Below, in pieces: positions 1 to 57,414 of a stretch of 64,000 bases of DNA. How positions within the stretch are numbered: the first letter of the stretch is position 1; the number at the start of each line of letters is the position of its first letter. This stretch comes from a phage: sequence record PX880100.1; one strand, written 5' to 3'. A program made the translations under genes and the position numbers. The notes under the pieces are model-generated. The model was not told where the DNA came from. It did not search any database and worked only from the letters and a program-made list of their open reading frames with translations.

Positions 1-1704
1 AATACTGGATTCATCCGGGAACTCATAAGCATGAGCTTTTGACAGCATCTTACGGTGATGATTATAAAATGCTACTGGTTTATCAAACTCAATCAAAGAG
101 CCATATGCTTCAATTGTTTCTGCACTAATATCCCCATCAGATAATATAATAATTTTTGCAGTTGCAAGAATGTCCCGAAGAACCTGAATACATTCACGAC
201 GTTGTTTAACAACCGGGGCGAATAATAGGTCATTCATTACAGCATCACATTCATCGATAAAGATTGCATCAATTTGACCAATAAAACTCTTGAACTTATG
301 CAAAGAGTGAATAGTTGTGGACATACGGTCAATAGCACCACGCTTAAAATTAAGCATATCTACAGACTTATCATATTGTCCTGCACTGAATTTCTTAGCA
401 TTTGAAGACACCAGCGCTCTAGTATTGGTAATTGCTAAGAAATTACCTTTAATAACTCCCGAATCTAACCAACGCACAACCGCCGTAGTTTTACCTGTAC
501 CTAGACTTGCTTTTACAAAAGTCATATAACCTTCTGGTGGCACAGTATTTAATTTCAAGAAGTTATCAGTTTCTAGAGAATTAGTTTCTAGCTTTTTAAG
601 TGGAATACCTTTTAAAACATCTGGTATATCACGTTTAGAATTATTAACAAATGCTTTCAGAGCCTGTTTACGACCATTATTAAAGTAATCTTGAATATTG
701 CGACTATTATCTTTAGTTGCAATATATTCTGATAAGGCTGGACGAATTTCTTTTTCTAGCCATGCAAAATCAACACCATCCTCCAAAGCTCTATGATAGA
801 GTTTAGGGATAATACGTAGATACACCCCATCCTCAGCTTCTTCTAGTTCGCTGATAGTTTCCTCTACTTTATCAGAGGCAGCTTTTTTACCTTTAATTTG
901 ATCGAGTAAAGAGTAAAACTCCTCCTTAAACTCACCTCTAGTTGTTTCATAGTCAACCAGATTATTGGGTAAATTTACTTTAGAACCCTTAACAAATACC
1001 AGACGTGAAGCACCCTCCGCTTTAAACGGATCTACTATACCATCAATAAATAACGGATCTGCAAAATAATGGAGCTGTACGGAAGAGTAATAAGCTAAGT
1101 CGGCAATATCAAAGCCATACTTTTGTCTACTACTTTCGTTGATAGATGTAAATAAGAATTTGATTTGACCCTGAGTTACTTTAACATTAGATTCTAGTAT
1201 TAAGTGCATTCGGATACCTGGTTTTAGCCCAGCCGAAGACGATGCATGAGCAATAAACCCTGCATCAAGAGGAAACATATCCTCACTAATACTATTTAAC
1301 ATTCTAATAATATGTCGAGCCATGCCAACAAGATCAAACTTGTTACAACCACCTGTATCTACAATACCATCCACGTCCATTGCAATTATATGACTTGGGT
1401 TAGATACATTAAAGTTGCCCTTCTTACGTCGCACATTATTTTTAGGTGCAAGACATCGACCTCGTACCGCAACGATATGAGGGTCAGACGTTAAACGTCT
1501 CATAAGAGGAAGCATTTCTACTAGGGTTTGAGGATCAACTTCATCAATTACATCAAACTTGAAGGGCATTGAAGCTGGTTTACCTTCAGGATGCTTTGAG
1601 GAAAATCTTTTAGCAAAAAGATAGTCTTCTGCTTTAACTTCTCGCCAATTGCCTGTGGCTAAATCGCGATGAAATCCTGCATGACCTTGTAGGATTGAGA
1701 ACAC
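1..1704 (-). CDS. DNA replication P-loop ATPase (primase/helicase-like), partial, runs off window start; probable GTG start at 1704
   Basis: Minus-strand frame open to window edge; Walker A GTGKT; AGGAG 7 nt upstream of GTG; absent from ORF track (truncated, non-ATG start). Confidence 0.55.
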   Translation of the reverse strand, partial: MFSILQGHAGFHRDLATGNWREVKAEDYLFAKRFSSKHPEGKPASMPFKFDVIDEVDPQTLVEMLPLMRRLTSDPHIVAVRGRCLAPKNNVRRKKGNFNVSNPSHIIAMDVDGIVDTGGCNKFDLVGMARHIIRMLNSISEDMFPLDAGFIAHASSSAGLKPGIRMHLILESNVKVTQGQIKFLFTSINESSRQKYGFDIADLAYYSSVQLHYFADPLFIDGIVDPFKAEGASRLVFVKGSKVNLPNNLVDYETTRGEFKEEFYSLLDQIKGKKAASDKVEETISELEEAEDGVYLRIIPKLYHRALEDGVDFAWLEKEIRPALSEYIATKDNSRNIQDYFNNGRKQALKAFVNNSKRDIPDVLKGIPLKKLETNSLETDNFLKLNTVPPEGYMTFVKASLGTGKTTAVVRWLDSGVIKGNFLAITNTRALVSSNAKKFSAGQYDKSVDMLNFKRGAIDRMSTTIHSLHKFKSFIGQIDAIFIDECDAVMNDLLFAPVVKQRRECIQVLRDILATAKIIILSDGDISAETIEAYGSLIEFDKPVAFYNHHRKMLSKAHAYEFPDESSI

Positions 1705-3329: not shown

Positions 3330-3842
3330 TTACACCTTAAATTGTTGTAGGGCTTTACACATTTCAAGATCTGGACTAAATTCTAACATATAGCTAACAG
3401 CTTTTAAATCCTGAAGATTTATCCCGGTCCTACCGTTGACTATAACCGTTGGATACTGATACATCATAGCACCCCCATCATCAAGCACACACCAATGTTT
3501 GAGCTTATGCTTTTCAACGAAGCGAAGAACAGAATTACCCCTAGATAATCCACCCCCAGTAAAATCCGTTGTACCAAGAAAACGATCGATAAGACCTAAT
3601 CCGGTCATAATCTGAACGTTCTCCATCTCATTTCTGACAGAGAACCAAGATGATACTCCAACAATCATTATCGGAGAAGGACGAATAAAGTCCTGAAAAG
3701 CCTTGAGAAGCGGTTTGAAAACCCAGTCACTTCCAAAGAAAATCTTTTCATCATCAGGTGCATGATGGTGGGAGATGCTTGAATTGAGCACCCCATCAAT
3801 GTCCAGAAAAATAATTGGAGTATTACTTATTTCCTGACACAT
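3330..3842 (-). CDS. HAD-superfamily phosphatase/hydrolase
   Basis: N-terminal FLDIDGVL (DxDG[TV]) motif I. Confidence 0.6.
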   Translation of the reverse strand: MCQEISNTPIIFLDIDGVLNSSISHHHAPDDEKIFFGSDWVFKPLLKAFQDFIRPSPIMIVGVSSWFSVRNEMENVQIMTGLGLIDRFLGTTDFTGGGLSRGNSVLRFVEKHKLKHWCVLDDGGAMMYQYPTVIVNGRTGINLQDLKAVSYMLEFSPDLEMCKALQQFKV

Positions 3843-4852: not shown

Positions 4853-5045
4853 AAAGTTTCTCCTCTAGTTCCATAACACGATTTTCATAAGAGGCACGCA
4901 ACTTTTCAATTGCCAGCGCACGCACTGTAACCTCATTAGAATTAATAGCTAACTGGGCCAGATCTTCTGTTTCCATACGTCCGTTGTAAATTAAGCGATA
5001 TTTAAGGTGCTTCACATTCTTAGTCATTATTAAACTCCACTGCAA
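4821..5045 (-). CDS. hypothetical protein
   Basis: ORF track, operon context. Confidence 0.4.
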   Translation of the reverse strand: MQWSLIMTKNVKHLKYRLIYNGRMETEDLAQLAINSNEVTVRALAIEKLRASYENRVMELEEKLYGILEADATR

Positions 5046-5400
5046 CTGTTTCTAGGTCTTCATCAGAAAAACTAGAGTATATATCTTTAAGATACTGTTT
5101 AATACTCCAAGTAATATCTTCATACCCATTGGGGCTACGTTGGTATACTTTTAACACTCTATTATACACAAATTCAAGATTACATTTTACTTCATCTCTG
5201 TCTTCATCAAACAAGCAATATGGGTTATAAGGCGATACATCTAGATTTGTTCCTACCCAATCGCCAATAATGGTAGGGTATGCAACACCCTCTATACGCG
5301 AGTAATCACCTGTGGCAGCAAAGACAGCCTCCGCAATATCATCCACACCCAGATGGAAACTACCACATGTAGATTCAACTATATAAGGCTTTAATTTCAT
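5020..5400 (-). CDS. hypothetical protein
   Basis: ORF track; first gene downstream of nrdD. Confidence 0.45.
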   Translation of the reverse strand: MKLKPYIVESTCGSFHLGVDDIAEAVFAATGDYSRIEGVAYPTIIGDWVGTNLDVSPYNPYCLFDEDRDEVKCNLEFVYNRVLKVYQRSPNGYEDITWSIKQYLKDIYSSFSDEDLETVAVEFNND

Positions 5401-8723: not shown

Positions 8724-8844
8724 TATACAGGGCCTGGGTATGAAAATACTCGGGCCTTTTCTATCAGAAAATTTTATTTGCCTAATGACCGATAATAAAG
8801 TAGAATATTCCTTAAATCCTGATAACTATAAAAAGGAAAGCCAA

Positions 8845-11175
8845 ATGAGCCATCGCATTGAAAAAGTAATTAAACGTGACGGTACTGTAGAAGACTTTGC
8901 TCCTGAAAAACTCAATGGTTGGGCAGAGTATGGTTGCAAAACAGTTGATGTAAGTTGGTCAGCCATTACTATGGCTGCTCAAAAAACTCTACCTAAAGGG
9001 GTTGTAGATTCCGATACTCTGATGGACGCATTAATTAAGGCTGCCGAAAGTCTTATCAAAGATAACCCAGCATATGATGTGCCCGCAAAGGAATTACGTC
9101 TTGCGCAAATGCGTAAACGTCTTTATGACTCTTTCGAACCGCCTTCTCTGCGCTTCTTCCACGACCATATGGTTAGCGTAGGTGCATGGGAAGACATGAG
9201 TGCATGGATTACCGATGAGCAATTTGAAGCTCTGAATCAGGTTATCGACCATGATCGTGACCGTCTTTTTACTAGTGGTGGACTGAAGCAGTTCTTTGAT
9301 AAGTATTCCCGGCGTAACATAGCCACTGGTGAAATTTATGAAACTCCGCAGTTTGCCTACATGGGTATGGCAATGGCGATGCTATCTCAACCTAACTGGA
9401 CAATTCTAGATGCAATCGACCTCTACAACGCAATGTCACTCCACAAAATCAACGTTCCTACGCCGCCACTGGTTGGTCTGCGCTCTAGTGACCGTGGATT
9501 TGCTAGTTGCTGCCTCGTGGATTCCACTGACACGTTGGATTCAATCGACACCGCCGAGCACATCGTCTTCAAAATGGTCGCAGCCAGAGCGGGAATCGGG
9601 TATCATCTTGAAAGCCGATCAATTGCTGATCCGGTGCGAAATGGGGCATTCCCGCATTCCGGAAAACTGCCATATTATCGACACATTGACCGCTCAGTAA
9701 AGGCTAATACTCAGCAAACTCGTGGTGGTTCTGCTACAGTGTCTTATCCATACTTCGATCCTGAAATCATTCAATTGATGCAGGTTAAGCAACAACGTGC
9801 TACAGATGAGAATAAAATCGATAAGATGGATTATTCTCTGAGCTTCAACAATCTTTTGTTAAAACGTTATCTGAAAAATGAAGATATTACGCTAATGTCA
9901 TACTTCTATGCTCCAGAAGTTCATGAAGCGTTTTATAGTGATGACGAGGCTAAATTTGAAGAAATCTACGTGGCAGCGGAGAAACGTGTGGCATCTCTTA
10001 CAAAGATCGACCACGAAGGAAAAACAGTTCCAGCAGCTCCTAAAGTCTGTGCAAAAGAAATCCTAGATACTTGGCTACGTATCCGAATGGAAACAGGACG
10101 TATGTATGCTCATCACATCGGGGAATCTAATCGTCACGGTAACTTCCTTGATCCGATCCGTATGACAAACCTTTGTGTTGAAATTACTCAGCCTACACGC
10201 CCGTTCCATCATATCACAGAGCTGTATAAGACAAAAGAGCAGCTTGATCAAATGAAGCCGGAGGATATTGGTGAAGTATCTCTGTGTAACTTAGGTGGTG
10301 TTGTACTTGGACGCATGGAATCTCTGGCTGAGTGGGAAAAAACTTGCTACATCCTTCTGAAATTCGTTGATACAATTATTGAAATTCAGGATTATCCATT
10401 CCCAACTATGGAATATACGGCTAAGAAACGTCGTAATGTTGGTATTGGCCTGATGAACGCAGCAGGTGCAATGGCAGCAGAAGGTCTGGCTTATGAAGGT
10501 ATTGAAGCCCGTAACTGGATTCACCGTGAGGCTGAAAAACTGTCTTACTTTCTGCATAAAGCCTCTGTACGCCTAGCTAAAGAACAGGGTGCATGTGAGT
10601 GGTTTGATCGTACTAAACCATCTAAAGGAATTCTGGTAATCGACACTTACAAGAAAACTGTTGATGAACTGGTATCCGTAGGTCTAGAAATGGATTGGGA
10701 GTCTCTGCGTGCAGATATTCTGAAATATGGTATGCGTAACTCTGTTCTGACTGCTCAGATGCCGGGAGAAAGTTCTTCTGTTCTGTTAGGTGTTACTAAC
10801 TCTATTGAACCGCCTCGTAAGATTGTATCTATCAAAGGTAGTGCAGTGAATAAAGTAATTGCAATTGCTCCGGGTGCAACCGATTGGGAAACGTTAATGA
10901 GCTATAAACTGGCTTATGATGTAGATCGTATTGAGTGGATCAAATGGGTAGCAACTATGCAGAAATTCTTCAGTCAGTCTATCAGTACGAATATGTACTA
11001 TGACTACACCAAGTTTGAGAATGAAATCATTCCTGGCCCAGTAGTAGTTCGTGATTTCATGACTGCTGTTAAGTATGGTTGGAAGACTTTCTATTACGCA
11101 AACTTCAACACCGCTAATGGTGGTGGTGCAGGAGAAGAATCCGCAGGCTGCGCTTCTGGTGGTTGTACCATCTAA
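8845..11175 (+). CDS. nrdA: ribonucleoside-diphosphate reductase large subunit (class Ia)
   Basis: ATP-cone-like N-terminus; NLCVEI active-site region; start trimmed to ATG with upstream AAGGAAAG. Confidence 0.9.
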   Translation: MSHRIEKVIKRDGTVEDFAPEKLNGWAEYGCKTVDVSWSAITMAAQKTLPKGVVDSDTLMDALIKAAESLIKDNPAYDVPAKELRLAQMRKRLYDSFEPPSLRFFHDHMVSVGAWEDMSAWITDEQFEALNQVIDHDRDRLFTSGGLKQFFDKYSRRNIATGEIYETPQFAYMGMAMAMLSQPNWTILDAIDLYNAMSLHKINVPTPPLVGLRSSDRGFASCCLVDSTDTLDSIDTAEHIVFKMVAARAGIGYHLESRSIADPVRNGAFPHSGKLPYYRHIDRSVKANTQQTRGGSATVSYPYFDPEIIQLMQVKQQRATDENKIDKMDYSLSFNNLLLKRYLKNEDITLMSYFYAPEVHEAFYSDDEAKFEEIYVAAEKRVASLTKIDHEGKTVPAAPKVCAKEILDTWLRIRMETGRMYAHHIGESNRHGNFLDPIRMTNLCVEITQPTRPFHHITELYKTKEQLDQMKPEDIGEVSLCNLGGVVLGRMESLAEWEKTCYILLKFVDTIIEIQDYPFPTMEYTAKKRRNVGIGLMNAAGAMAAEGLAYEGIEARNWIHREAEKLSYFLHKASVRLAKEQGACEWFDRTKPSKGILVIDTYKKTVDELVSVGLEMDWESLRADILKYGMRNSVLTAQMPGESSSVLLGVTNSIEPPRKIVSIKGSAVNKVIAIAPGATDWETLMSYKLAYDVDRIEWIKWVATMQKFFSQSISTNMYYDYTKFENEIIPGPVVVRDFMTAVKYGWKTFYYANFNTANGGGAGEESAGCASGGCTI

Positions 11176-11783: not shown

Positions 11784-12929
11784 ATGACTACTTTACTAAA
11801 CCTGAATTGGGATCATACTAACGCTGATCTTTTCCTGGGCGATTCTCTAGGTATCGCAGATTATGTACGTGTAGCACATCCAGAACTAGAACGTCTGGCA
11901 CTTCTGCAACGCTCTCAATTTTGGACTGAAACTGAAATCAGTCTGGAAGCAGATAAGAAACAATGGCCCAATCTCCCACGTGAAATCCAGGAAATCACAC
12001 TCCTGAACTTAGCATGGCAGACTCAAACAGATTCCTTTATCAGTCGTGCTCCTGAAGCAGCTATTATGCCGCTTGTAAGCCGTCCAGAATTGGAAGGTAT
12101 GCTCAAGCAGTGGAGCTATTTTGAAGACCTGCATAGTCGTGCTTATAGTAATATTATTCGTAATGTGCTGACTGATCCAGCAGAATTTATTGATTCTGTA
12201 ACCAAAAACCAAGAAGCATTCGCACGTATCGCTGATTCTGTTGAGCTGTTCGATGAACTGTACCAGTTAGGTCAGTATTTCATCGCGGTACGTGATCATC
12301 GTGGTGACAATACATATCCAGAAACTGAGTTCCCTGAAGTTAAGCGTGAAACTCAGGCTAAACTGTTAGATGCTTATTTTGCAATCTACGGTCTGGAAGC
12401 AATGCAGTTCTACGCATCCTTTGCATGTACTTTTGCTCTAGCAGAGAACGATATTCTGCAAGGTATTGCTAAAAATCTGCAATTAATCGCTAAAGATGAG
12501 GCTCTGCACACCCAGATGTCTAAAACAATCATCCAGATTATGTTCCAGCAGTTTGACAAAGATCTGGTAGATGAAGCAGTGGCTAAAGCACCAGCACAGC
12601 TCCTGAAAACTCTAAAAACTGAGATTGAATGGGGTCATTTCATTTTCAAAGGTCGTAGTCTGATTGGTTTGAATGCAGAACTTCTAGAAGAATACTTGTA
12701 CTTTGTGGGGCGTAATGCATTTATGCACATTGGTGTAGAATGGCCTAGTCACTTACCAGTAATCACTAAAAACCCTATTCCGTGGATCATGAACTGGTTG
12801 GATACTACTTCTCTACAGCCTGCTCCACAAGAAATCCAGATTGGTGCAGCCTACCGTGTAGGTCAGGTAACTGAGACCTCTACTGATACTCTGGAAGATC
12901 TGGGCAATGAATTTGGAGATTTCCTATGA
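11784..12929 (+). CDS. nrdB: ribonucleoside-diphosphate reductase small subunit
   Basis: 381 aa, ferritin-like R2 protein with EDEALHT iron-ligand region. Confidence 0.85.
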   Translation: MTTLLNLNWDHTNADLFLGDSLGIADYVRVAHPELERLALLQRSQFWTETEISLEADKKQWPNLPREIQEITLLNLAWQTQTDSFISRAPEAAIMPLVSRPELEGMLKQWSYFEDLHSRAYSNIIRNVLTDPAEFIDSVTKNQEAFARIADSVELFDELYQLGQYFIAVRDHRGDNTYPETEFPEVKRETQAKLLDAYFAIYGLEAMQFYASFACTFALAENDILQGIAKNLQLIAKDEALHTQMSKTIIQIMFQQFDKDLVDEAVAKAPAQLLKTLKTEIEWGHFIFKGRSLIGLNAELLEEYLYFVGRNAFMHIGVEWPSHLPVITKNPIPWIMNWLDTTSLQPAPQEIQIGAAYRVGQVTETSTDTLEDLGNEFGDFL

Positions 12930-15761: not shown

Positions 15762-15790
15762 TTGCTAAACGCTTCAAATTCTCGTATAAT
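15762..15790 (+). promoter_or_regulatory. N25-like early promoter
   Basis: A-tract, TTGCTA-17 bp-TATAAT, then CATAAATTGAT. Confidence 0.65.
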
Positions 15791-15828
15791 ATACTTCATA
15801 AATTGATAAACAAAAAGGAAAACAAATA

Positions 15829-16344
15829 ATGGCTAAGCAGAAAAACGCAAAAACTCAAGCAGCTCCGGCAGTTAAAACTTTCCCGCAGACTGAGGCTAAT
15901 CGCAAAGCTCGTCTGGAACGTCACCTGCGTAAGCATCCTACCGATGCTCAGGCTGCTCAAGCACTGAATAATCCGGCTCCGATTCGTCAGAAGCCTAAAG
16001 CTAAAAATGCCACCCGTAAATCCTACAAAATGGTTATGTATGTAGAAAATTACGGACACAAATCTGTCCCAGTTTCCCTGAGCTTCAACGCTGGGGCTGA
16101 ATTGTTCTCTCGTAATGGTATGTCTATGAAAGACTATGAGAAGGCAGTTAACCAGAAACGTAAACCAACAGCAGATGTATTGCGTGATACTCGTGGACAG
16201 TTTGGTTCTGTTAAGCCAAATATCTTTGGCGTAGAGTATAGTAAAGATAATGTTCGTGCTCTGTGTTACGGTGTAGGCATTAAGTTCACGGGTGATTCTG
16301 CTCGTAAATCTGCTAAACCAGCTCGCAAGCGTAAAGCGAAGTAA
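15829..16344 (+). CDS. hypothetical highly basic protein
   Basis: K/R-rich termini; host-optimal codons (ctg, cgt, ggt). Confidence 0.5.
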   Translation: MAKQKNAKTQAAPAVKTFPQTEANRKARLERHLRKHPTDAQAAQALNNPAPIRQKPKAKNATRKSYKMVMYVENYGHKSVPVSLSFNAGAELFSRNGMSMKDYEKAVNQKRKPTADVLRDTRGQFGSVKPNIFGVEYSKDNVRALCYGVGIKFTGDSARKSAKPARKRKAK

Positions 16345-16407
16345 TAGATAAATAGGGGCAGAAGCCCCTACAATCTACTAATTCTCTAACTAATCAAGGA
16401 TATTTTT

Positions 16408-16623
16408 ATGTTCTCTAAGAAACCACGCTCCGTTACTGAAATCGTTGCTTCCTTTACCACTATCACTGATGAGCTTCAAGCTCGTATTGAGGCTGATCAA
16501 AAAATTGCTGCGGATATTCAGAAACAGCAGGAAGAACTCGCTTTAAAGTTGGCTGAAACCAACAAGAGTGAAAAATCTGCCCAAACTATTATGGAAAATA
16601 TCCTTAAACTGCTGGGCAAGTGA
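16408..16623 (+). CDS. hypothetical protein
   Basis: ORF track; terminator hairpin downstream. Confidence 0.45.
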   Translation: MFSKKPRSVTEIVASFTTITDELQARIEADQKIAADIQKQQEELALKLAETNKSEKSAQTIMENILKLLGK

Positions 16624-16664
16624 TTTAAATCAGGGGGCGAAAGCCCCTCTTATTTGGAGAAACT

Positions 16665-16901
16665 ATGCGTAATTTTGTAGCAAAGAATGATTTTAACCGT
16701 GCTAGCACTCATAAGTCCGCTAGAGATTATACACGACTTTCTAGTCATGAGGTAATGGATACCTGTTATGAAGAGCTGGAAGGTAGCTGGAATGAGTGGC
16801 CCGACTTCTCTATGGAAGAGAACTGGGATGTCAGTGAGGATATGCTTCCTGGTTTTAAAGACCCCAAGAAGTGGGAGTCTATTAAAGAGACAGCTCTTTA
16901 A
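16665..16901 (+). CDS. hypothetical acidic protein
   Basis: ORF track. Confidence 0.4.
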   Translation: MRNFVAKNDFNRASTHKSARDYTRLSSHEVMDTCYEELEGSWNEWPDFSMEENWDVSEDMLPGFKDPKKWESIKETAL

Positions 16902-16929
16902 TAGTTTTCTACACAATAAAGGATAAGTT

Positions 16930-17631
16930 ATGAAAGTAAAACCATTTGGTATGCTAGATATTGAATCTCTGGGAACTCCAGGAGATTGTGGTACTACTCA
17001 TATCGCAATGCCTTCTTTCGCTTTTGTGGCTATGCATGGAATTGATAAAGACCCTGATCTAATATTTGTTACTTTGGATGTACAAGATCAGCTTAATTCT
17101 GGTGCCAAAGTTACAGCATCTACTCTAGCATTCTGGATGGATCAAGCTAAAAATAGCCCGTCTGCTATCCACATTATGGAAGCTATGAAGGAACGTAATC
17201 CAAAACTGATTGCCTTCCAAAATGGTAAACATCATTGCACTAATAAACTCGGCTCTAACTATGCTGCCTACTCTATGGCTAAAAATATTATGGAGTTGGC
17301 TTTAGGCGAAAATGCTTTGTATTATGGCAACGGTCCAGAGTTTGATATGACTATCTACTCTGCAAACACGTTCCATGCTGGAACCAATGAAGAGGTAGTT
17401 CCGTGGAAATTCTGGAATTTGGGTAATGTTCGATCTCTTCGTAACCTCTGGATGCAAGCTGGATACAGTTATAAAGCTCTAGAGACCGAAGGTATTAGCT
17501 GGGCAATAGCTAAAATGGAGAAGATGGACACCATTCGTTATGGGATCTATCCGGTTAAGCACGACCCAGCATTTGATGCCTTAGTTGAAAGCTATTGTGT
17601 TGCAGCTATGATCGAAAAAATGAAAATTTGA
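16930..17631 (+). CDS. DEDDh-type 3'-5' exonuclease (DnaQ-like)
   Basis: LDIESLG exo motif I; C-terminal H-x4-D (HDPAFDA). Confidence 0.55.
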   Translation: MKVKPFGMLDIESLGTPGDCGTTHIAMPSFAFVAMHGIDKDPDLIFVTLDVQDQLNSGAKVTASTLAFWMDQAKNSPSAIHIMEAMKERNPKLIAFQNGKHHCTNKLGSNYAAYSMAKNIMELALGENALYYGNGPEFDMTIYSANTFHAGTNEEVVPWKFWNLGNVRSLRNLWMQAGYSYKALETEGISWAIAKMEKMDTIRYGIYPVKHDPAFDALVESYCVAAMIEKMKI

Positions 17632-17701
17632 TTTGCTTCCGGCCCCAAAATTCTGTATAATATATTCATAAATTTGAGAAAACAACAAAAGGAAAACAAA
17701 T

Positions 17702-17884
17702 ATGCCAGTATCTAAAAATGTTCGTAAAAATGGTAAGAAAGCTACTCGTAATCTGGGTATCCGTCGTATGGCTGAACGTCAATCAGGTGTCCAGAAAATC
17801 TTTGATCTGCTAAATCGTGCTAATCCTAAAATTGATAACAGTAAAGATACTGTTCTGCGTACCTTACTGGCAATGGGTCTGTAA
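17702..17884 (+). CDS. hypothetical small basic protein
   Basis: Promoter cassette upstream; host-like codon usage. Confidence 0.45.
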   Translation: MPVSKNVRKNGKKATRNLGIRRMAERQSGVQKIFDLLNRANPKIDNSKDTVLRTLLAMGL

Positions 17885-17936
17885 TAGACCAACTTTAAAC
17901 AAATTCAAATCTTAAACTTCATATAAGGAAGAAACA

Positions 17937-18575
17937 ATGACCACTCGTATTTCTAAAACTCGTGCTCTGGCAACCATCAAATCTCTGGAAGCTAAAATCC
18001 GTAAAGCTACTGAACAACAGCTTCTGATCGCTGTTGGTGAAGGTAAGGATAAAAACCAGGTTGTAGTTGGCGCTGCAATCGAAGTAGCTGATCTGTCTAC
18101 TCGTATTAAGACTGATTTCCAGTCTCTGCTGGATATGATGTCCCAGCGCGATCGTATCAAAGCTGCTCTGATTAAAAGCAATGCGGAAACAATCGTTGAG
18201 ATTGGCTCTCGTAAGATGACTGTTGCGGAAGCAATTGAAGCTAAGCGTTCTATGGAACTTAAAGCTCAACTGCTGGCTAACATGCGTAAGCAGTTCCATG
18301 CCGCTACAGTTAAGTTTAATGCGCAGAAAGCACAGTTTGATGCTAAATATGAGCGTTTGCAGGATAGCATGGCTACCCGCGATAAGAAAACTTCCGAAGA
18401 TGAAGTTAAAATGCAGCTCAACCTGCTGGAACTCAAGAATACTCCATTCTTGATTGATCCGCTGGAACTGGAGAAGCTGATTAAGCAGCATGACGAGGAA
18501 TACCAGGACTTTGCAACAAATGTTGACTTTGTTCTGTCCGAGTCTAACGCCTCTACCTTCATTGAAGTAGAGTAA
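17937..18575 (+). CDS. hypothetical coiled-coil protein
   Basis: ORF track; strongly host-optimal codon usage. Confidence 0.5.
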   Translation: MTTRISKTRALATIKSLEAKIRKATEQQLLIAVGEGKDKNQVVVGAAIEVADLSTRIKTDFQSLLDMMSQRDRIKAALIKSNAETIVEIGSRKMTVAEAIEAKRSMELKAQLLANMRKQFHAATVKFNAQKAQFDAKYERLQDSMATRDKKTSEDEVKMQLNLLELKNTPFLIDPLELEKLIKQHDEEYQDFATNVDFVLSESNASTFIEVE

Positions 18576-19017
18576 TAATTTAAAAGCTAGTAAATCGGTA
18601 GACGAAAGCCCAAGCATCTTACCTCGCAGCAGCGGTTGAAATACGAGGTTAAATAAGACCGCTGACCATACTATAAAGTATAATCTATTGGAGATTATGT
18701 TTATTACACCAGCCTTTTAAGCTGACACGTAAGAACAAAGCGTCGTTGATATTACCGACACAACTTCAAAGATCAACATTTAAGTATGAAAGCTGAAAAG
18801 TTTAAAGAACTCAAACTTCTAAACTTCTAAAGCTAAAAGATGCAAAGTATTCGTTGATGATTCAAACCCTAGATCAAAGGTACATGGCTCATAAGATATG
18901 GCCTGTGGCGCCTCTAGGCTGTTTATCGGTTTACTAGTTTCACAATTTAAAAATGTATTTGCTAATTTATTAAGTTATCTGTATAATATATTTTTAAATT
19001 GATGAAACGAGGCTATT

Positions 19018-20472: not shown

Positions 20473-20480
20473 AAATTTAT

Positions 20481-20509
20481 TTGCTAAATGCTTATAAATT
20501 CTGTATAAT
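20481..20509 (+). promoter_or_regulatory. N25-like early promoter driving an ORF-free RNA region
   Basis: TTGCTA-17 bp-TATAAT; no ORF for about 0.8 kb downstream. Confidence 0.6.
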
Positions 20510-20732
20510 ATATTCATAAATTAGAGAACAGCGAGCCGATTACGCTGAGTGCAGAATCCCAACCGGAGCGCATTGAATAGAGTCGGTGGGTTAGTTGTAA
20601 AACTAGTACACAGGGGGCGGCAATCCCGGTTAGTGGCTAGAACGTGTAAAATGAGGCGTCTGAAACCTCTCCCCTAAACTCTTCTCTAATTTATAAATAG
20701 TGGGGTGTGGAAATCACTTATGTAGTAACACT

Positions 20733-20804
20733 GCCGTCCTAGTATAATTGGTATTATCAAGCCGTAACTGGTGGAAGATGTAGGTTCGAATCCTACGGTC
20801 GGTA
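20733..20804 (+). ncRNA. tRNA-like element (canonical T-arm, anticodon arm unresolved)
   Basis: GTAGG-TTCGAAT-CCTAC T-arm and 6/7 acceptor pairing; no clean anticodon stem. Confidence 0.3.
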
Positions 20805-21306
20805 AGAACTGGATAACTGATGCTTTTAACGTAAAAGCTTCCGAGGTTAGTTGCGCACTGCCTAAACCACGCGGTAGTTGGTTCCAGACTAACCAACCAG
20901 TCTGCTGAATAGTTTTATTACGATTTAACTATGTCCAGGCTAAAGAAGAACTTTAGAAGGTATTCTAGGATAGTGAAGTTCTTTCTCCACATCGGAGTAG
21001 TTTTTCAAGCTATCCACAAAGTGGGAAATGCTGACATGAGAGATGTCACTAATGGTGCACAATAGCACAGGTAATTCGCGATAATTCCTGTTGAGTAGCA
21101 GCAAAAGGCGGGAAGTCATGACCCCAAGCCTAACCGAGTCCTCAATATACCGCAGGACATAACCACTAAGTCACCCTGACTTAAACTGGAAAATAATAGA
21201 CGTTACTGTATTTTGTCTTGAAATACTTAATGAGTGAGACTTATGACTCTCCCGGTATCGTCTGTATTTTTAAGAGTTTTTACGAGAGTTCTTAAAAATA
21301 CTTAAA

Positions 21307-21381
21307 CGGGGTGTAGTCTAAGGGAGAGGCAGGAGTCTTCTAAATTCCTTTATGCAGGTTCGAATCCTGTCACCTCGGCCA
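21307..21381 (+). tRNA. tRNA-Arg (anticodon UCU)
   Basis: Hand-folded cloverleaf; T-loop TTCGAAT; encoded CCA. Confidence 0.65.
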
Positions 21382-21415: not shown

Positions 21416-22363
21416 ATGTTTAATACTAAAAATATGAAAGAACTGACTTCTGAGCAGAAAGTAATTCGTACTATTAAACGTTGGGGGATTGGTGCTGTAG
21501 TTGGTTTAGCAGGTTTAGTTCTAGCTCTTAACTCCTATACCGTTGTTCAAGACGGTACTGTTAAGACCCAGACTTTCTTGGGTAAAGTTGATCCTAATCC
21601 AGTATTACCTGGTTTCCATGTTGTAAATCCTTTTGCTTCTTTTGATACTTTTAGTACTAAAGATATTGCTCTAAAATTAGATAAACTTCAGGTTCCTAGT
21701 CAGGATAAGTTTAAATCCACTGTTGACCTGACTGTTATGTTGCAGTTTGATGGTTCTAAAGCACCGATTAACCGTATTAATGCAGGTAATCAGGATCAAG
21801 CGTTAGACAAATATGTAACTGAAAAATTACTGTCTACTATTCGTGAGTTTGGTAAGTCTGTACCTAAAGCACAAGATTTATTTGATGCTAAAATTCAGGC
21901 TCAATTGCAAACTGCAATTCAACAGGAAGTTGAAGAGTATGCACGCCCATATGGTTACACAGTTAAGCAGGTGTTCCTTCAGGATATTACTTTGCCACCG
22001 GTAATCATGGAACAGGTACAGAATACCAAAGTTCGTGAAGAACAGGTTAATGCTGCTAAAGCTGAATTAGCTCGTGTTGAACAGGAAGCACAGCAAAAAG
22101 TTAAACAAGCAGAAGCAGATCGTGAAGCTCGCAACAACCAAGCTATTGCTAATGAACGTGACGCAGATGCTAAACTGTACGCAGCTAAGAAAGAAGCTGA
22201 AGCTAACGCCGCATTGCAACGTACCATTACTCCTGAGATGATTCGCTGGAAGCAACTGGAAGTTGAAATGATCCGTGCTCAGAAGTATCAAGGTGGTGTA
22301 CCACAGACGGTAGTTGGTACTGGTTATGATGGCCAAATGATCATGGATATGCGTAATAAATAA
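21416..22363 (+). CDS. SPFH/band-7 domain membrane protein (prohibitin/HflC-like)
   Basis: N-terminal TM helix; SPFH-like core; long coiled-coil C-terminus. Confidence 0.6.
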   Translation: MFNTKNMKELTSEQKVIRTIKRWGIGAVVGLAGLVLALNSYTVVQDGTVKTQTFLGKVDPNPVLPGFHVVNPFASFDTFSTKDIALKLDKLQVPSQDKFKSTVDLTVMLQFDGSKAPINRINAGNQDQALDKYVTEKLLSTIREFGKSVPKAQDLFDAKIQAQLQTAIQQEVEEYARPYGYTVKQVFLQDITLPPVIMEQVQNTKVREEQVNAAKAELARVEQEAQQKVKQAEADREARNNQAIANERDADAKLYAAKKEAEANAALQRTITPEMIRWKQLEVEMIRAQKYQGGVPQTVVGTGYDGQMIMDMRNK

Positions 22364-55749: not shown

Positions 55750-57414
55750 ATGATTATTTCCGCAGAAAAACAAACCGTTATCCTGAAAATGGCCGCTGAC
55801 TTTAATTTCTATGGTAAACGTCTGCGCGCTACTAAACTGGAAGTCTGCGACGATATTTCGAAAGCGGTATACGATACTACTAAACACTCCACCGCCATTT
55901 GTGATTGGTTGGAAGCAAATAAGCCAGCGAAACCAAAAGCGGCAAAAGTAGCAAAAGCCATTAAAAACGATGAGCGCCCAGAAGCGGCTGGGATTGTTTC
56001 TAGCACGGTTGAGCAATGGGAAGTAAAACAAGGTAAACGCTTTATTATTACGTCGATTCAGAATAATACTTTCCCGCATAAAAACTTTTTAGCCTCACTG
56101 GAGCAATTTGCTAAATATATCGGTGCTGATTTGCTTGTTTCTAAGTATATTTATAATAAAAACGGCTTCCAGAATGGAGAAGGTGCGGATGGAATCAAAT
56201 ATGATTCCGCTTTTGATAAATATATTTGCAGCAAAAACGTGTTTTTAAATAACCGCCGTTTCGCTTTCATGGCTGAAATTAATGTTTTGCCAACCGCAGA
56301 TTATCCGCTTTCTGGATTCGCAGAAACTGCAACGGCTTTAAATATTGAAGGTCTGGCAATTGGTCACGCTAAAATTACCGCTGAAAGTGTGCCAGCTTTG
56401 AAAGGTGAAGTAGTGCGCCGCATGTATTCAACCGGAACGGCAACGCTCAAAAACTACATTCAGCAGAAAGCAGGACAGAAAGCGGAAGCACTTCATAACT
56501 TCGGTGCGCTGATTGTTGAGTTCGACGACGACGGGGAATTTTTTGTTCGCCAGCTTGAAACAATGGACGAAAGCGGGGTGTTTTATGATCTGAATGTTTG
56601 CGCTACTCCTGCCGGATGCTATGAAACATCGGGGCATGTTTTAGGCTTGCAATACGGCGATATTCACGCCGAAAAATTAGATGACGATTGCGCCGCTGCG
56701 TCATGGGCTGGCGAAAATAGCTTGCTTGATATTCTTAAACCAAAATATCAGTTTGTGCACGACGTTCACGATTTTACATCGCGCAATCATCATAACCGCG
56801 CGTCGGGTGTATTCCTAGCAAAACAGTACGCCGCCGGACGTGATAAAGTTCTGGATGATCTTATCGATACCGGTCGCGTGCTGGAGTCGATGGAACGTGA
56901 TTTTAGTCAAACGATCATCGTAGAATCTAATCACGATTTGGCGCTATCCCGTTGGCTTGATGATCGTAATGCTAACATCAAAGACGATCCCGCGAACGCG
57001 GAACTGTATCACCGCCTGAATGCTGCAATCTATGCGGCAATCGGTGAACACGACGAAACGTTTAACGTGCTAGATTATGCGTTGCGCAAGGTTGCAGGTT
57101 GCGAGTTTAACGCCATTTTTCTGACCACTGACCAATCTTTCAAGATTGCAGGCATTGAATGCGGCGTACACGGTCACAACGGCATTAACGGCAGCCGTGG
57201 CAATCCTAAGCAGTTTAAGAAATTGGGCAAGTTAAACACCGGACACACTCACACTGCCAGCATTTACGGCGGCGTATATACCGCTGGCGTTGCTGGTAGT
57301 CTGGATATGGGTTACAACGTGGGCGCGTCAAGCTGGACGCAAACGCATTTAATTACCTATGCAAACGGTCAGCGCACTTTGATTGACTTTAAGAATGGTA
57401 AATTCTTTGCGTAA
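55750..57414 (+). CDS. A1: A1-like pre-early protein (metallophosphatase-like)
   Basis: 554 aa; GDIH and ESNHD metallophosphatase-like motifs; context with A2 and dmp. Confidence 0.6.
   Translation: MIISAEKQTVILKMAADFNFYGKRLRATKLEVCDDISKAVYDTTKHSTAICDWLEANKPAKPKAAKVAKAIKNDERPEAAGIVSSTVEQWEVKQGKRFIITSIQNNTFPHKNFLASLEQFAKYIGADLLVSKYIYNKNGFQNGEGADGIKYDSAFDKYICSKNVFLNNRRFAFMAEINVLPTADYPLSGFAETATALNIEGLAIGHAKITAESVPALKGEVVRRMYSTGTATLKNYIQQKAGQKAEALHNFGALIVEFDDDGEFFVRQLETMDESGVFYDLNVCATPAGCYETSGHVLGLQYGDIHAEKLDDDCAAASWAGENSLLDILKPKYQFVHDVHDFTSRNHHNRASGVFLAKQYAAGRDKVLDDLIDTGRVLESMERDFSQTIIVESNHDLALSRWLDDRNANIKDDPANAELYHRLNAAIYAAIGEHDETFNVLDYALRKVAGCEFNAIFLTTDQSFKIAGIECGVHGHNGINGSRGNPKQFKKLGKLNTGHTHTASIYGGVYTAGVAGSLDMGYNVGASSWTQTHLITYANGQRTLIDFKNGKFFA

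Follow-up and report, generated by a model that had tools for sequence, protein, structure and literature searches.

Several described systems resemble, each in part, the locus that is reported here. In phage T4, the operator of gene 32 consists of a pseudoknot followed by an unstructured tract of A/U-rich repeats (PMC10690425). Short words at regular distances in single-stranded RNA are also found in the trp leader, with its GAG/UAG repeats for TRAP, and in the CsrA/CsrB system. The T4 band C and D RNAs and the T5 "rnaX" lie in or beside phage tRNA clusters, on the strand of the tRNAs. In TnpB and IscB with their omega RNA, a conserved structured RNA is encoded right behind the protein gene, in the same orientation, and the two make up a two-part mobile unit. 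Type III toxin-antitoxin systems of the ToxIN kind carry tandem repeats of ~36 nt upstream of an endoribonuclease toxin gene. Here we describe a structured RNA that lies directly 3´ of the ortholog of T5.085 in a stretch of 64,000 nt of phage DNA (record PX880100.1; the whole stretch is called the window below). T5-like phages such as AKFV33, Spc35 and similar ones are 97-98% identical to the region. An original prediction, made from the letters of the window, had singled out three open reading frames (ORFs) of this region for their codon usage. All three are present as described and represent the orthologs of T5.089, T5.086 and T5.085 (Table 1).

In phages and bacteria alike, the structured RNA shows strict linkage to the T5.085 family. 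In distant loci, the T5.085-family gene is always followed by a gene-free gap of ~350-450 nt (18576..19017 in the window), and these gaps display one common design in spite of very unequal base compositions. Covariance model R1 of the element was built from 18 phage sequences; its seeds were picked for having the stem, so it is the searches that are real tests. In the phage set, comprising the window, phage loci and one Tepidibacter locus (405 kb, both strands), R1 matched in 52 of 57 sources. There was a single match per source, always on the strand of the gene and downstream of it, and none elsewhere. Bacterial loci that were new to the model (663 kb, both strands) gave matches in 71 of 80, again on the strand of the gene and 170-380 nt past its stop codon, plus one extra match. 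Altogether, the RNA was recovered in 123 of 137 loci at the cost of that one extra match in ~1.07 Mb searched on both strands. The covariation score amounted to 0.53 in the phage set, compared with 0.17 for shuffled and at most 0.135 for slid alignments; the corresponding values for the bacterial set were 0.41, 0.11 and at most 0.10. In both sets the core stem pairs form in nearly every case, and a single position may show as many as five types of pair.

The element of the window folds better than 100 out of 100 shuffled versions of itself (minimum free energy (MFE) z = -3.3). Its first part is an H-type pseudoknot. A geometric search found such a pseudoknot in 44 of 52 unique regions of the phage set, against 7.4 +/- 2.6 in dinucleotide shuffles and 10 of 44 control windows. 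In the independent bacterial set it was present in 45 of 80 loci; shuffles yielded 9.1 +/- 2.8 and control windows 11 of 72. The enrichment over shuffles is thus 5- to 6-fold in two independent sets. The bacterial pseudoknots start at a median of 43 nt past the stop codon (interquartile range 43-45) and are built of 24 distinct stem 1 arms and 29 distinct stem 2 arms. Stem 1 was also recovered by RNAalifold.

The pseudoknot is followed by an array of A-rich words which stays unpaired in the RNAalifold consensus. Distances between the words are most often 7 nt (121 cases), followed by 8 nt (69) and 6 nt (46), with a harmonic at 14 nt (35). The density of AAAG in the array region is about four-fold that in flanking DNA (5.0 versus 1.27 per 140 nt), and the number of A-rich heptamers ranges from 8 to 14 across loci. 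Within the 64-kb window, the longest heptad chain (7) coincides with the array; chains elsewhere do not exceed 4. The last part is a 3´ stem-loop domain. Its outer stem was predicted independently by RNAalifold. The inner hairpin covaries in the subgroup of T5-, rV5- and My1-like phages, one of its pairs being GC five times, AU four times, CG three times and UA once, and in the same subgroup it carries the invariant loop CAUAAGAUAU.

This arrangement raises the question whether the RNA is an autoregulatory operator, to which T5.085 would bind on its own mRNA in order to control stability or translation, as in gene 32. Both RNAs place an H-type pseudoknot before a single-stranded tract of A-rich words, in either case on the mRNA of a phage protein that is abundant, and the pseudoknot with its unstructured A/U-rich repeats, located on the transcript of the gene itself, agrees with what has been described for gene 32 (PMC10690425). 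However, the gene 32 operator covers the ribosome-binding site, whereas the element described here lies 3´ of the gene, ~45 nt past the stop codon, and does not overlap any ribosome-binding site. Its length of ~330 nt and the additional conserved, covarying 3´ domain with an invariant loop exceed the needs of an operator, and the strict 7-nt period of AAAG-type words is likewise unlike gene 32. Further, gp32 is a single-strand binder of the oligonucleotide/oligosaccharide-binding (OB) fold, whereas T5.085 is helical and its module is found in bacterial chromosomes as well. We consider the operator quite unlikely for these reasons.

TRAP and CsrA offer a different comparison. By analogy to them, the regular array of ~8-14 words suggests multivalent binding of a protein. 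The words and their spacing are different in the TRAP and CsrA arrays, and the candidate partner in our case is an unrelated protein encoded in cis, whose binding is putative.

The strand on which the structure operates can be read from its mismatches. In the cells of the stems, G.U occurs 39 times and A.C only 5 times, which shows that the structure is that of the plus-strand RNA, not of DNA or of the opposite strand. The same count bears on the idea that the element works as DNA, for example as a replication origin of the iteron type or by means of single-strand hairpins. Direct repeats of short words beside hairpins do look iteron-like. Yet stems that tolerate G.U and not A.C fold only in the plus-strand transcript, the orientation of the element is always that of the gene, and copies are found in bacterial chromosomes, where a phage origin is implausible. 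In Lysinibacillus the element is even enclosed between the stop codon and an intrinsic terminator. A DNA element is thus very improbable.

The gene-RNA pair has been found in T5-like, rV5-like, T4-like, Pseudomonas, Vibrio, Erwinia, Lactococcus and Bacillus phages. Further, it exists as a stand-alone chromosomal locus in Lysinibacillus, Solibacillus, Sporosarcina, Brevibacillus, Paenibacillus and clostridia. The order in Lysinibacillus is promoter, Shine-Dalgarno sequence, gene, pseudoknot, array, 3´ stem-loop and intrinsic terminator; this is a single unit, in which the RNA makes up the 3´ portion of the transcript that carries the gene. Outside of any prophage, ordinary chromosomal genes surround the pair in Solibacillus and Tepidibacter, while in distant phages the T5.085-family gene is located among early, replication and tRNA genes. 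No conserved neighbour gene accompanies the pair across 133 loci, so the unit consists of the gene and the RNA only.

In phages, the setting is often that of tRNA genes. Same-strand tRNA genes are present within 2.5 kb in 31 of 56 phage loci. In ten rV5-like loci, tRNA-Thr(UGU) begins 10-15 nt past the RNA (ARAGORN), and in one locus a tRNA is inserted within the RNA. The 3´ end of the RNA is probably cut by RNase P in phages, and the RNA probably matures together with the phage tRNAs. In its position the element thus resembles the T4 band C and D RNAs and T5 "rnaX", from which it differs by being tied to one protein family and by its conservation far outside one phage group.

The tRNA context is also an argument for the main rival explanation, namely that the RNA acts alone and merely shares a transcript with T5.085. 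It might be a stabiliser in the 3´ untranslated region, a platform for processing of transcripts from tRNA clusters, or a sponge that decoys a host factor, for instance an RNA-binding protein or a tRNA-targeting nuclease. Such roles would suit an RNA that is located within or next to tRNA clusters and whose 3´ end borders directly on tRNAs, and repeat arrays are typical of sponge RNAs. On the other hand, the pair stays intact in Bacillota chromosomes that offer neither a tRNA cluster nor a phage context, and it stays intact down to ~30% protein identity. A free-standing RNA would be expected to occur sometimes without the gene, yet R1 finds it practically nowhere else. We therefore regard an RNA acting alone as possible and rather unlikely.

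Some loci that bear the module show further peculiarities. One phage locus (L049) encodes a suppressor-like tRNA with anticodon UUA at 1265..1337 (called tRNA-Stop), and another (L085) a tRNA-Asn with anticodon AUU at 3477..3553. In Paenibacillus xylaniclasticus (L089), a "skipping-rope" RNA (RF02924, 54 bits, E = 4e-10) is situated at 5019..5147, ~90 nt past the 3´ domain. The pair was also encountered on contigs of metagenome-assembled genomes (L133, L134, L135, L143 and L147; L133 and L135 archaeal), in bins assigned to Pacearchaeota, Bathyarchaeia, Chitinophagaceae, Parabacteroides and Sericytochromatia. These may be mis-binned viral contigs, or the host range of the module may be wider.

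The novelty of the module rests on negative database and literature searches. Rfam 15 has no match to the element in the window (E <= 1), in 12 distant phage loci (E <= 0.1) or in 8 bacterial loci (E <= 1), and the gap 3´ of T5.085 is unannotated in the T5 and AKFV33 records. Literature searches with the locus names, DUF7022, 3kdq and the invariant RNA motifs returned nothing relevant; unnamed fragments of the element are possible in the bulk catalogue of Fremin 2023, which holds 8,495 unnamed candidate RNAs from IMG/VR. We have considered several known RNAs as the same element. The sRNA1 and sRNA2 of phage PAK_P3 (~100 nt, late-expressed and placed differently) are not evidently the same. T5 "rnaX" is a separate locus, downstream of T5.081. 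Its counterpart in the window is ~20480..21300 (+), a region without a convincing ORF between a promoter at 20481..20509 and tRNA-Arg at 21307; the T5 RefSeq annotates it as misc_RNA "rnaX, stable RNA with unknown functions", and it represents a second RNA near the tRNA cluster. A type III system similar to ToxIN does not fit either, since the words repeated here are 7 nt long and come downstream of the gene, and since T5.085 has no toxin-family match. As for TnpB and IscB, the likeness is one of layout only: the T5.085 module is devoid of a nuclease or catalytic domain, of transposon ends and of a guide-like variable segment.

The second line of evidence concerns the expression of T5.085 and its neighbours. 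The three ORFs are part of the early plus-strand block, where they come after the genes for ribonucleotide reductase, dihydrofolate reductase, thymidylate synthase and RNase H. The first of 24 clustered tRNA genes is reached ~2.7 kb downstream of the three ORFs. The codon adaptation index (CAI) was computed for 119 mechanically called ORFs of the window, with codon weights derived from the ribosomal-protein, tufA and fusA genes of E. coli K-12 (29 genes) and with gsp genes and chiA as low-expression controls. As a null, synonymous codons were drawn from the window's own usage with the protein sequence kept fixed (5,000 resamplings per gene). The host-optimal codon usage that had been claimed for the three ORFs is borne out, as they rank 1, 2 and 5 of 119 (Table 1) and none of 5,000 resamplings reached the observed CAI for any of them. 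Rank 3 belongs to a 71-aa ORF that was missing from the original list. For comparison, the median of the window is 0.328; values range from 0.55 to 0.83 for the E. coli reference genes and from 0.22 to 0.38 for the gsp genes. T5.085 and T5.089 are hence inside the range of host ribosomal-protein genes, T5.086 and the 71-aa ORF are slightly under it, and all four beat the null. Because the null preserves protein sequence, an artefact of amino-acid composition or gene length can be ruled out as the source of the signal. T5's own T5.085, T5.089 and T5.086 behave similarly (CAI 0.620, 0.587 and 0.503), with most of their neighbours at 0.30-0.42.

Only a part of the codons that had been cited as host-like is distinctive. 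CTG makes up 64% of leucine codons in the set and 15% in other ORFs of the window (p = 1.6e-12), and CGT 85% versus 48% of arginine codons. GGT and AAA, in contrast, are common phage-wide and do not distinguish the set from the remaining phage genes. The codons that are shunned are equally telling: AGR (0% versus 25% elsewhere in the phage), ATA (0% versus 18%) and TTA+CTA (7% versus 48%). AGA, ATA, TTA and CTA, which the set avoids, are codons for which the phage brings tRNAs of its own, among them Arg-UCU, Leu-UAA and Leu-UAG, whereas CTG and CGT are served by tRNAs that are abundant in the host. The genes are therefore tuned to the tRNA pool of the host. We infer that translational selection for very high output shaped their codon usage.

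As an alternative to high abundance, recent acquisition had been suggested; the bias would then stem from horizontal transfer out of the host or of some other source with high GC. The GC content of the genes (0.39-0.45) is indeed slightly higher than that of their neighbours, and this is about all that is left of the supposed difference from AT-rich neighbours: GC content at third codon positions (0.24-0.43) is like that of other window ORFs (0.32) and lower than in E. coli genes (0.48-0.51), which speaks for translational selection and against recent acquisition. In addition, the favoured codons include the T-ending CGT, the synteny of the early block is kept in 435 of 447 matching T5-like records, T5.089 and T5.086 are limited to this lineage, and the T5.085 family is old and very widely spread. 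High mRNA abundance (see below) independently supports expression as the cause. Acquisition is thus extremely improbable, and translational selection remains our explanation. It reaches a wider set of early genes, as judged from four other genes with elevated CAI for their length (z = 4.1-6.7): two ribonucleotide reductase subunits (8740..11175 and 11784..12929), a T5.080-like protein of 315 aa (21416..22363) and a protein of 554 aa (55750..57414). In comparison with the classic selection on CAI (Sharp and Li), the combination of ribosomal-protein-range CAI and top-level phage transcripts is the same. The difference is that small early genes are concerned instead of capsid or other structural ones, and that exactly the codons of phage tRNAs are avoided.

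Matches to the T5-type consensus TTGCT-N17-19-TATAAT number 22 in the window, where chance alone would give 0.38. A generic TTGACA promoter scan of the window missed these promoters and gave no enrichment over shuffles. Each of the three ORFs was said to follow an early promoter. This holds for T5.089 and T5.086 and not for T5.085, which has no promoter of its own and lies 53 nt behind T5.086 as the second gene of an operon. The majority of the 22 promoters stand before genes of ordinary codon usage, so the promoter by itself does not define the set. The leaders of T5.089 (15791..15828) and T5.086 (17662..17701) are near-identical; they are A-rich, contain an AAGGA Shine-Dalgarno sequence and end with ...AAAAGGAAAACAAAT(A)ATG. 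This suggests a common conserved design of translation initiation in the two strongest units.

Transcript levels are available for the Tequintavirus Bas33, which has a T5.085 ortholog with 96% identity to that of the window (RNA-seq 20 min post infection, PMC13250531 Dataset S1, ~150 listed phage genes); we deduced the meaning of the columns in this dataset from the values themselves, which behave like read counts normalised to length. The T5.085 and T5.089 orthologs rank 4 and 6 among the ~150 phage genes and 1 and 2 in the early block. Only three genes exceed bas33_0075 (22868, 10850 and 10586 transcripts per million (TPM) in replicate 1). As regards transcript level and translation signals, the expectation of very abundant early proteins has therefore gained support. 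From T5.089 to the next gene, TPM falls ~75-fold (7677 to 102). Because of this drop, the GC-rich hairpin directly past the T5.089 stop codon suggests a terminator or a protector of the 3´ end. The TPM of the T5.085 ortholog is 2.5x that of the upstream gene of the same operon, which is consistent with a stabilised 3´ segment.

T5.085 itself belongs to a large family. Clustering at 50% identity leaves at least 3,334 representatives (1,597 of them with E <= 1e-30), all ~205-217 aa in length, and the family was found in 372 IMG/VR loci, in 742 of 50,697 phage records from many hosts and in genomes of 209 bacterial species, Bacillota predominating. The structural model of T5.085 is confident (predicted local distance difference test (pLDDT) 87) and consists of long helices with three short beta elements, which form a helical bundle with a small beta-sheet head. 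Its best fold match is PDB 3kdq, a Corynebacterium diphtheriae protein. A profile of the family finds 3kdq weakly (E = 0.12), T5.085 being ~60 residues longer, and Pfam DUF6847 is a similarly weak match (E = 0.19, 2 of 34 members); T5.085 has its fold in common with 3kdq/DUF6847, and the sequence relationship stays below significance. Pfam and NCBIfam searches with 34 family members yielded noise only and no fitting model, with no toxin-family match among the results, and a BFVD fold search gave uncharacterised phage proteins only. Invariant motifs (TRAL, SNA.T, MTVAEAIE and VDFVLSESNA.T) coincide with the predicted beta elements, and the invariant residues there are mostly polar or basic (R9, R71, K75, N82, T85, S201, E202, S203 and N204), so that they may form a surface for binding.

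PHROG 1491 and many GenBank records label T5.085 as "tail fiber protein", and its codons might then be optimised for the production of a tail-fibre or tape-measure-like component of the virion. These annotations are what such a reading can be built on. Against them stand the location of the gene, which follows an early promoter in the early plus-strand block, next to genes of nucleotide metabolism and outside of the late structural module; the 3kdq-like helical bundle, which is no fibre; the stand-alone chromosomal homologs in Bacillota; and the distant phages, where the gene has early, replication and tRNA genes around it. T5.085 is not a tail fibre, and a virion role of any such kind is very unlikely. 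The three proteins had been put forward as candidates for binding to the nucleoid or for host shutoff. In the case of T5.085, the evidence points to an RNA partner rather than to the nucleoid.

The two other proteins are of a different kind. T5.089 matches Pfam DUF7022 over its full length (256 bits, cutoff 27, E = 1.8e-76) and bears basic tails on both termini. Its homologs form 34 clusters, exclusively from phages of the T5 lineage; PDB searches by sequence and profile were empty, and its AlphaFold2 (AF2) model is poor (pLDDT 66). T5.086 is confined to the T5 lineage too, with zero tblastn matches in 56 distant loci. With isoelectric points (pI) of 10.6 and 11.7, T5.089 and T5.086 are basic enough that they could bind nucleic acids. 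They have the expression design in common with T5.085, not the RNA module.

How may these observations be put together? Strong T5-type sigma-70 promoters and A-rich leaders drive the three early genes, and the T5.085 protein would associate with the RNA on its own transcript into a ribonucleoprotein. It is from the strict genomic linkage of gene and RNA that we infer such a particle. The heptamer array might bind many copies of T5.085, roughly one per 7-nt word. If so, the protein would be needed in large excess over its own transcript, and under this proposal such excess would be the reason why T5.085 is the most codon-adapted gene of the window. The setting of tRNA clusters in phages makes a role in translation or tRNA biology our best guess. 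On balance we lean, with slightly better than even confidence, towards codon-tuned, highly transcribed early genes of T5, of which T5.085 makes a putative ribonucleoprotein with its cis-encoded RNA. A more far-reaching version is possible and doubtful: an abundant new ribonucleoprotein common to large virulent phages with many different hosts and to Bacillota chromosomes, in which the protein polymerises on the array and the resulting complex influences translation or tRNA metabolism, for instance through protection or sequestration of tRNAs or ribosomes during infection or stress.

There are several points which weigh against a ribonucleoprotein. With its pI of 6.8, T5.085 is nearly neutral, and it lacks a recognised RNA-binding domain. 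R1 missed the RNA in 5 of 57 sources of the phage set and in 9 of 80 bacterial loci (~10%). The heptamer marker is also weak in several of these, although heptad chains discriminate too weakly to judge absence of the RNA in the 14 R1-negative loci; the T5.085-family protein may sometimes occur without the RNA. Co-transcription by itself could account for the gene-RNA linkage. A long-range closing helix that would join the 5´ flank to the sequence preceding the 3´ stem-loop, as predicted by the MFE fold, failed its control (6.55 bp in matched and 6.46 bp in mismatched loci, p = 0.27), which leaves the overall fold defined only in part. As to expression, the CAI of T5.086 (57 codons) and of the 71-aa ORF is based on few codons, and the Bas33 data, besides the deduced meaning of their columns, come from 20 min, not from an early time point.

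Table 1. Features of the T5.085 region in the window, with CAI (rank among 119 ORFs; z against synonymous resampling) and transcript levels of the Bas33 orthologs (PMC13250531)
Feature	Position	Strand	Description	CAI (rank; z)	Bas33 gene, TPM
T5-type sigma-70 promoter	15762..15790	+	TTGCTA-N17-TATAAT; drives T5.089; equivalent of "P-H 207" in T5 RefSeq; annotated in AKFV33		
T5.089 ortholog	15829..16344	+	171 aa, 19 kDa, pI 10.6, DUF7022	0.597 (2; 4.9)	bas33_0071, 7677 / 6658
GC-rich hairpin	16352..16371	+	AGGGGC-AGAA-GCCCCT, directly past T5.089 stop codon; read from sequence		
71-aa ORF	16408..16623	+	phrog_2380; AKFV33 orf087	0.548 (3; 3.0)	
Terminator-like hairpin	16633..16648	+	3´ of 71-aa ORF; terminator scan		
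T5.088 ortholog	16665..16901	+			bas33_0072, 102 / 92
T5.087 ortholog	16930..17631	+			bas33_0073, 3569 / 3043
T5-type promoter	17633..17661	+	TTGCTT-N17-TATAAT; for T5.086-T5.085 unit and the RNA behind it; annotated in AKFV33 and T5		
T5.086 ortholog	17702..17884	+	60 aa, pI 11.7, phrog_5252	0.535 (5; 3.6)	bas33_0074, 3368 / 3035
T5.085 ortholog	17937..18575	+	212 aa, pI 6.8	0.655 (1; 7.5)	bas33_0075, 8541 / 6881
Structured RNA	18596..18932 (ends approximate)	+	covariance model R1, directly 3´ of T5.085		
H-type pseudoknot	18622..18664	+	stem 1 CCUCG/CGAGG, stem 2 CAGCGGU/ACCGCUG, A-rich loop 3 (UUAAAUAAG)		
A-rich word array	18765..18847	+	UUCAAAG, UGAAAG, UUUAAAG, CUAAAG and others; ~11 words, 7-nt period; predicted single-stranded		
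3´ stem-loop domain	18868..18921	+	outer stem CCUAGA/UCUAGG, then CUG; inner hairpin with loop CAUAAGAUAU		

Some of the neighbouring genes deserve a comment. The 71-aa ORF is present in AKFV33 and EPS7 and missing from T5 and Bas33, where the spacing between T5.089 and T5.088 is only ~43 nt. Flanked by two GC-rich hairpins, it may represent a small inserted cassette with high expression. The T5.088 and T5.087 orthologs cover successive stretches of the phrog_255 exonuclease profile (positions 75-147 and 177-363), and T5.087 also matches the Rv2179c-like 3´-5´ exoribonuclease domain. Their usual label, "metallopeptidase", looks wrong; the two may be a split exonuclease. In one distant locus (L006), a short DUF7230 ORF that resembles the N-terminus of T5.088 lies downstream of the T5.085-family gene. 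Finally, an antisense ORF at 17919..18617 (-) overlaps T5.085 and, with 232 aa, exceeds it in length. Comparable antisense ORFs are found over the T5.085-family gene in 16-17 further loci. The one in the window has a CAI of 0.33 and is most likely a compositional shadow of T5.085, not a gene.

Taken together, the codon-usage signal alone is a textbook phenomenon, and the module to which it led is of more interest. The model phage T5 holds an overlooked, conserved structured RNA of ~330 nt that is paired one-to-one with the T5.085 family, whose members go under "tail fiber" or "hypothetical" in databases. At minimum, hundreds of "tail fiber protein" annotations should be corrected and one RNA family added to the databases. 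If the ribonucleoprotein is true, it would represent a new widespread class beside the few bacterial ribonucleoproteins that are known, one that is experimentally tractable in T5 and E. coli, and it may account for part of what the tRNA regions of phages do.

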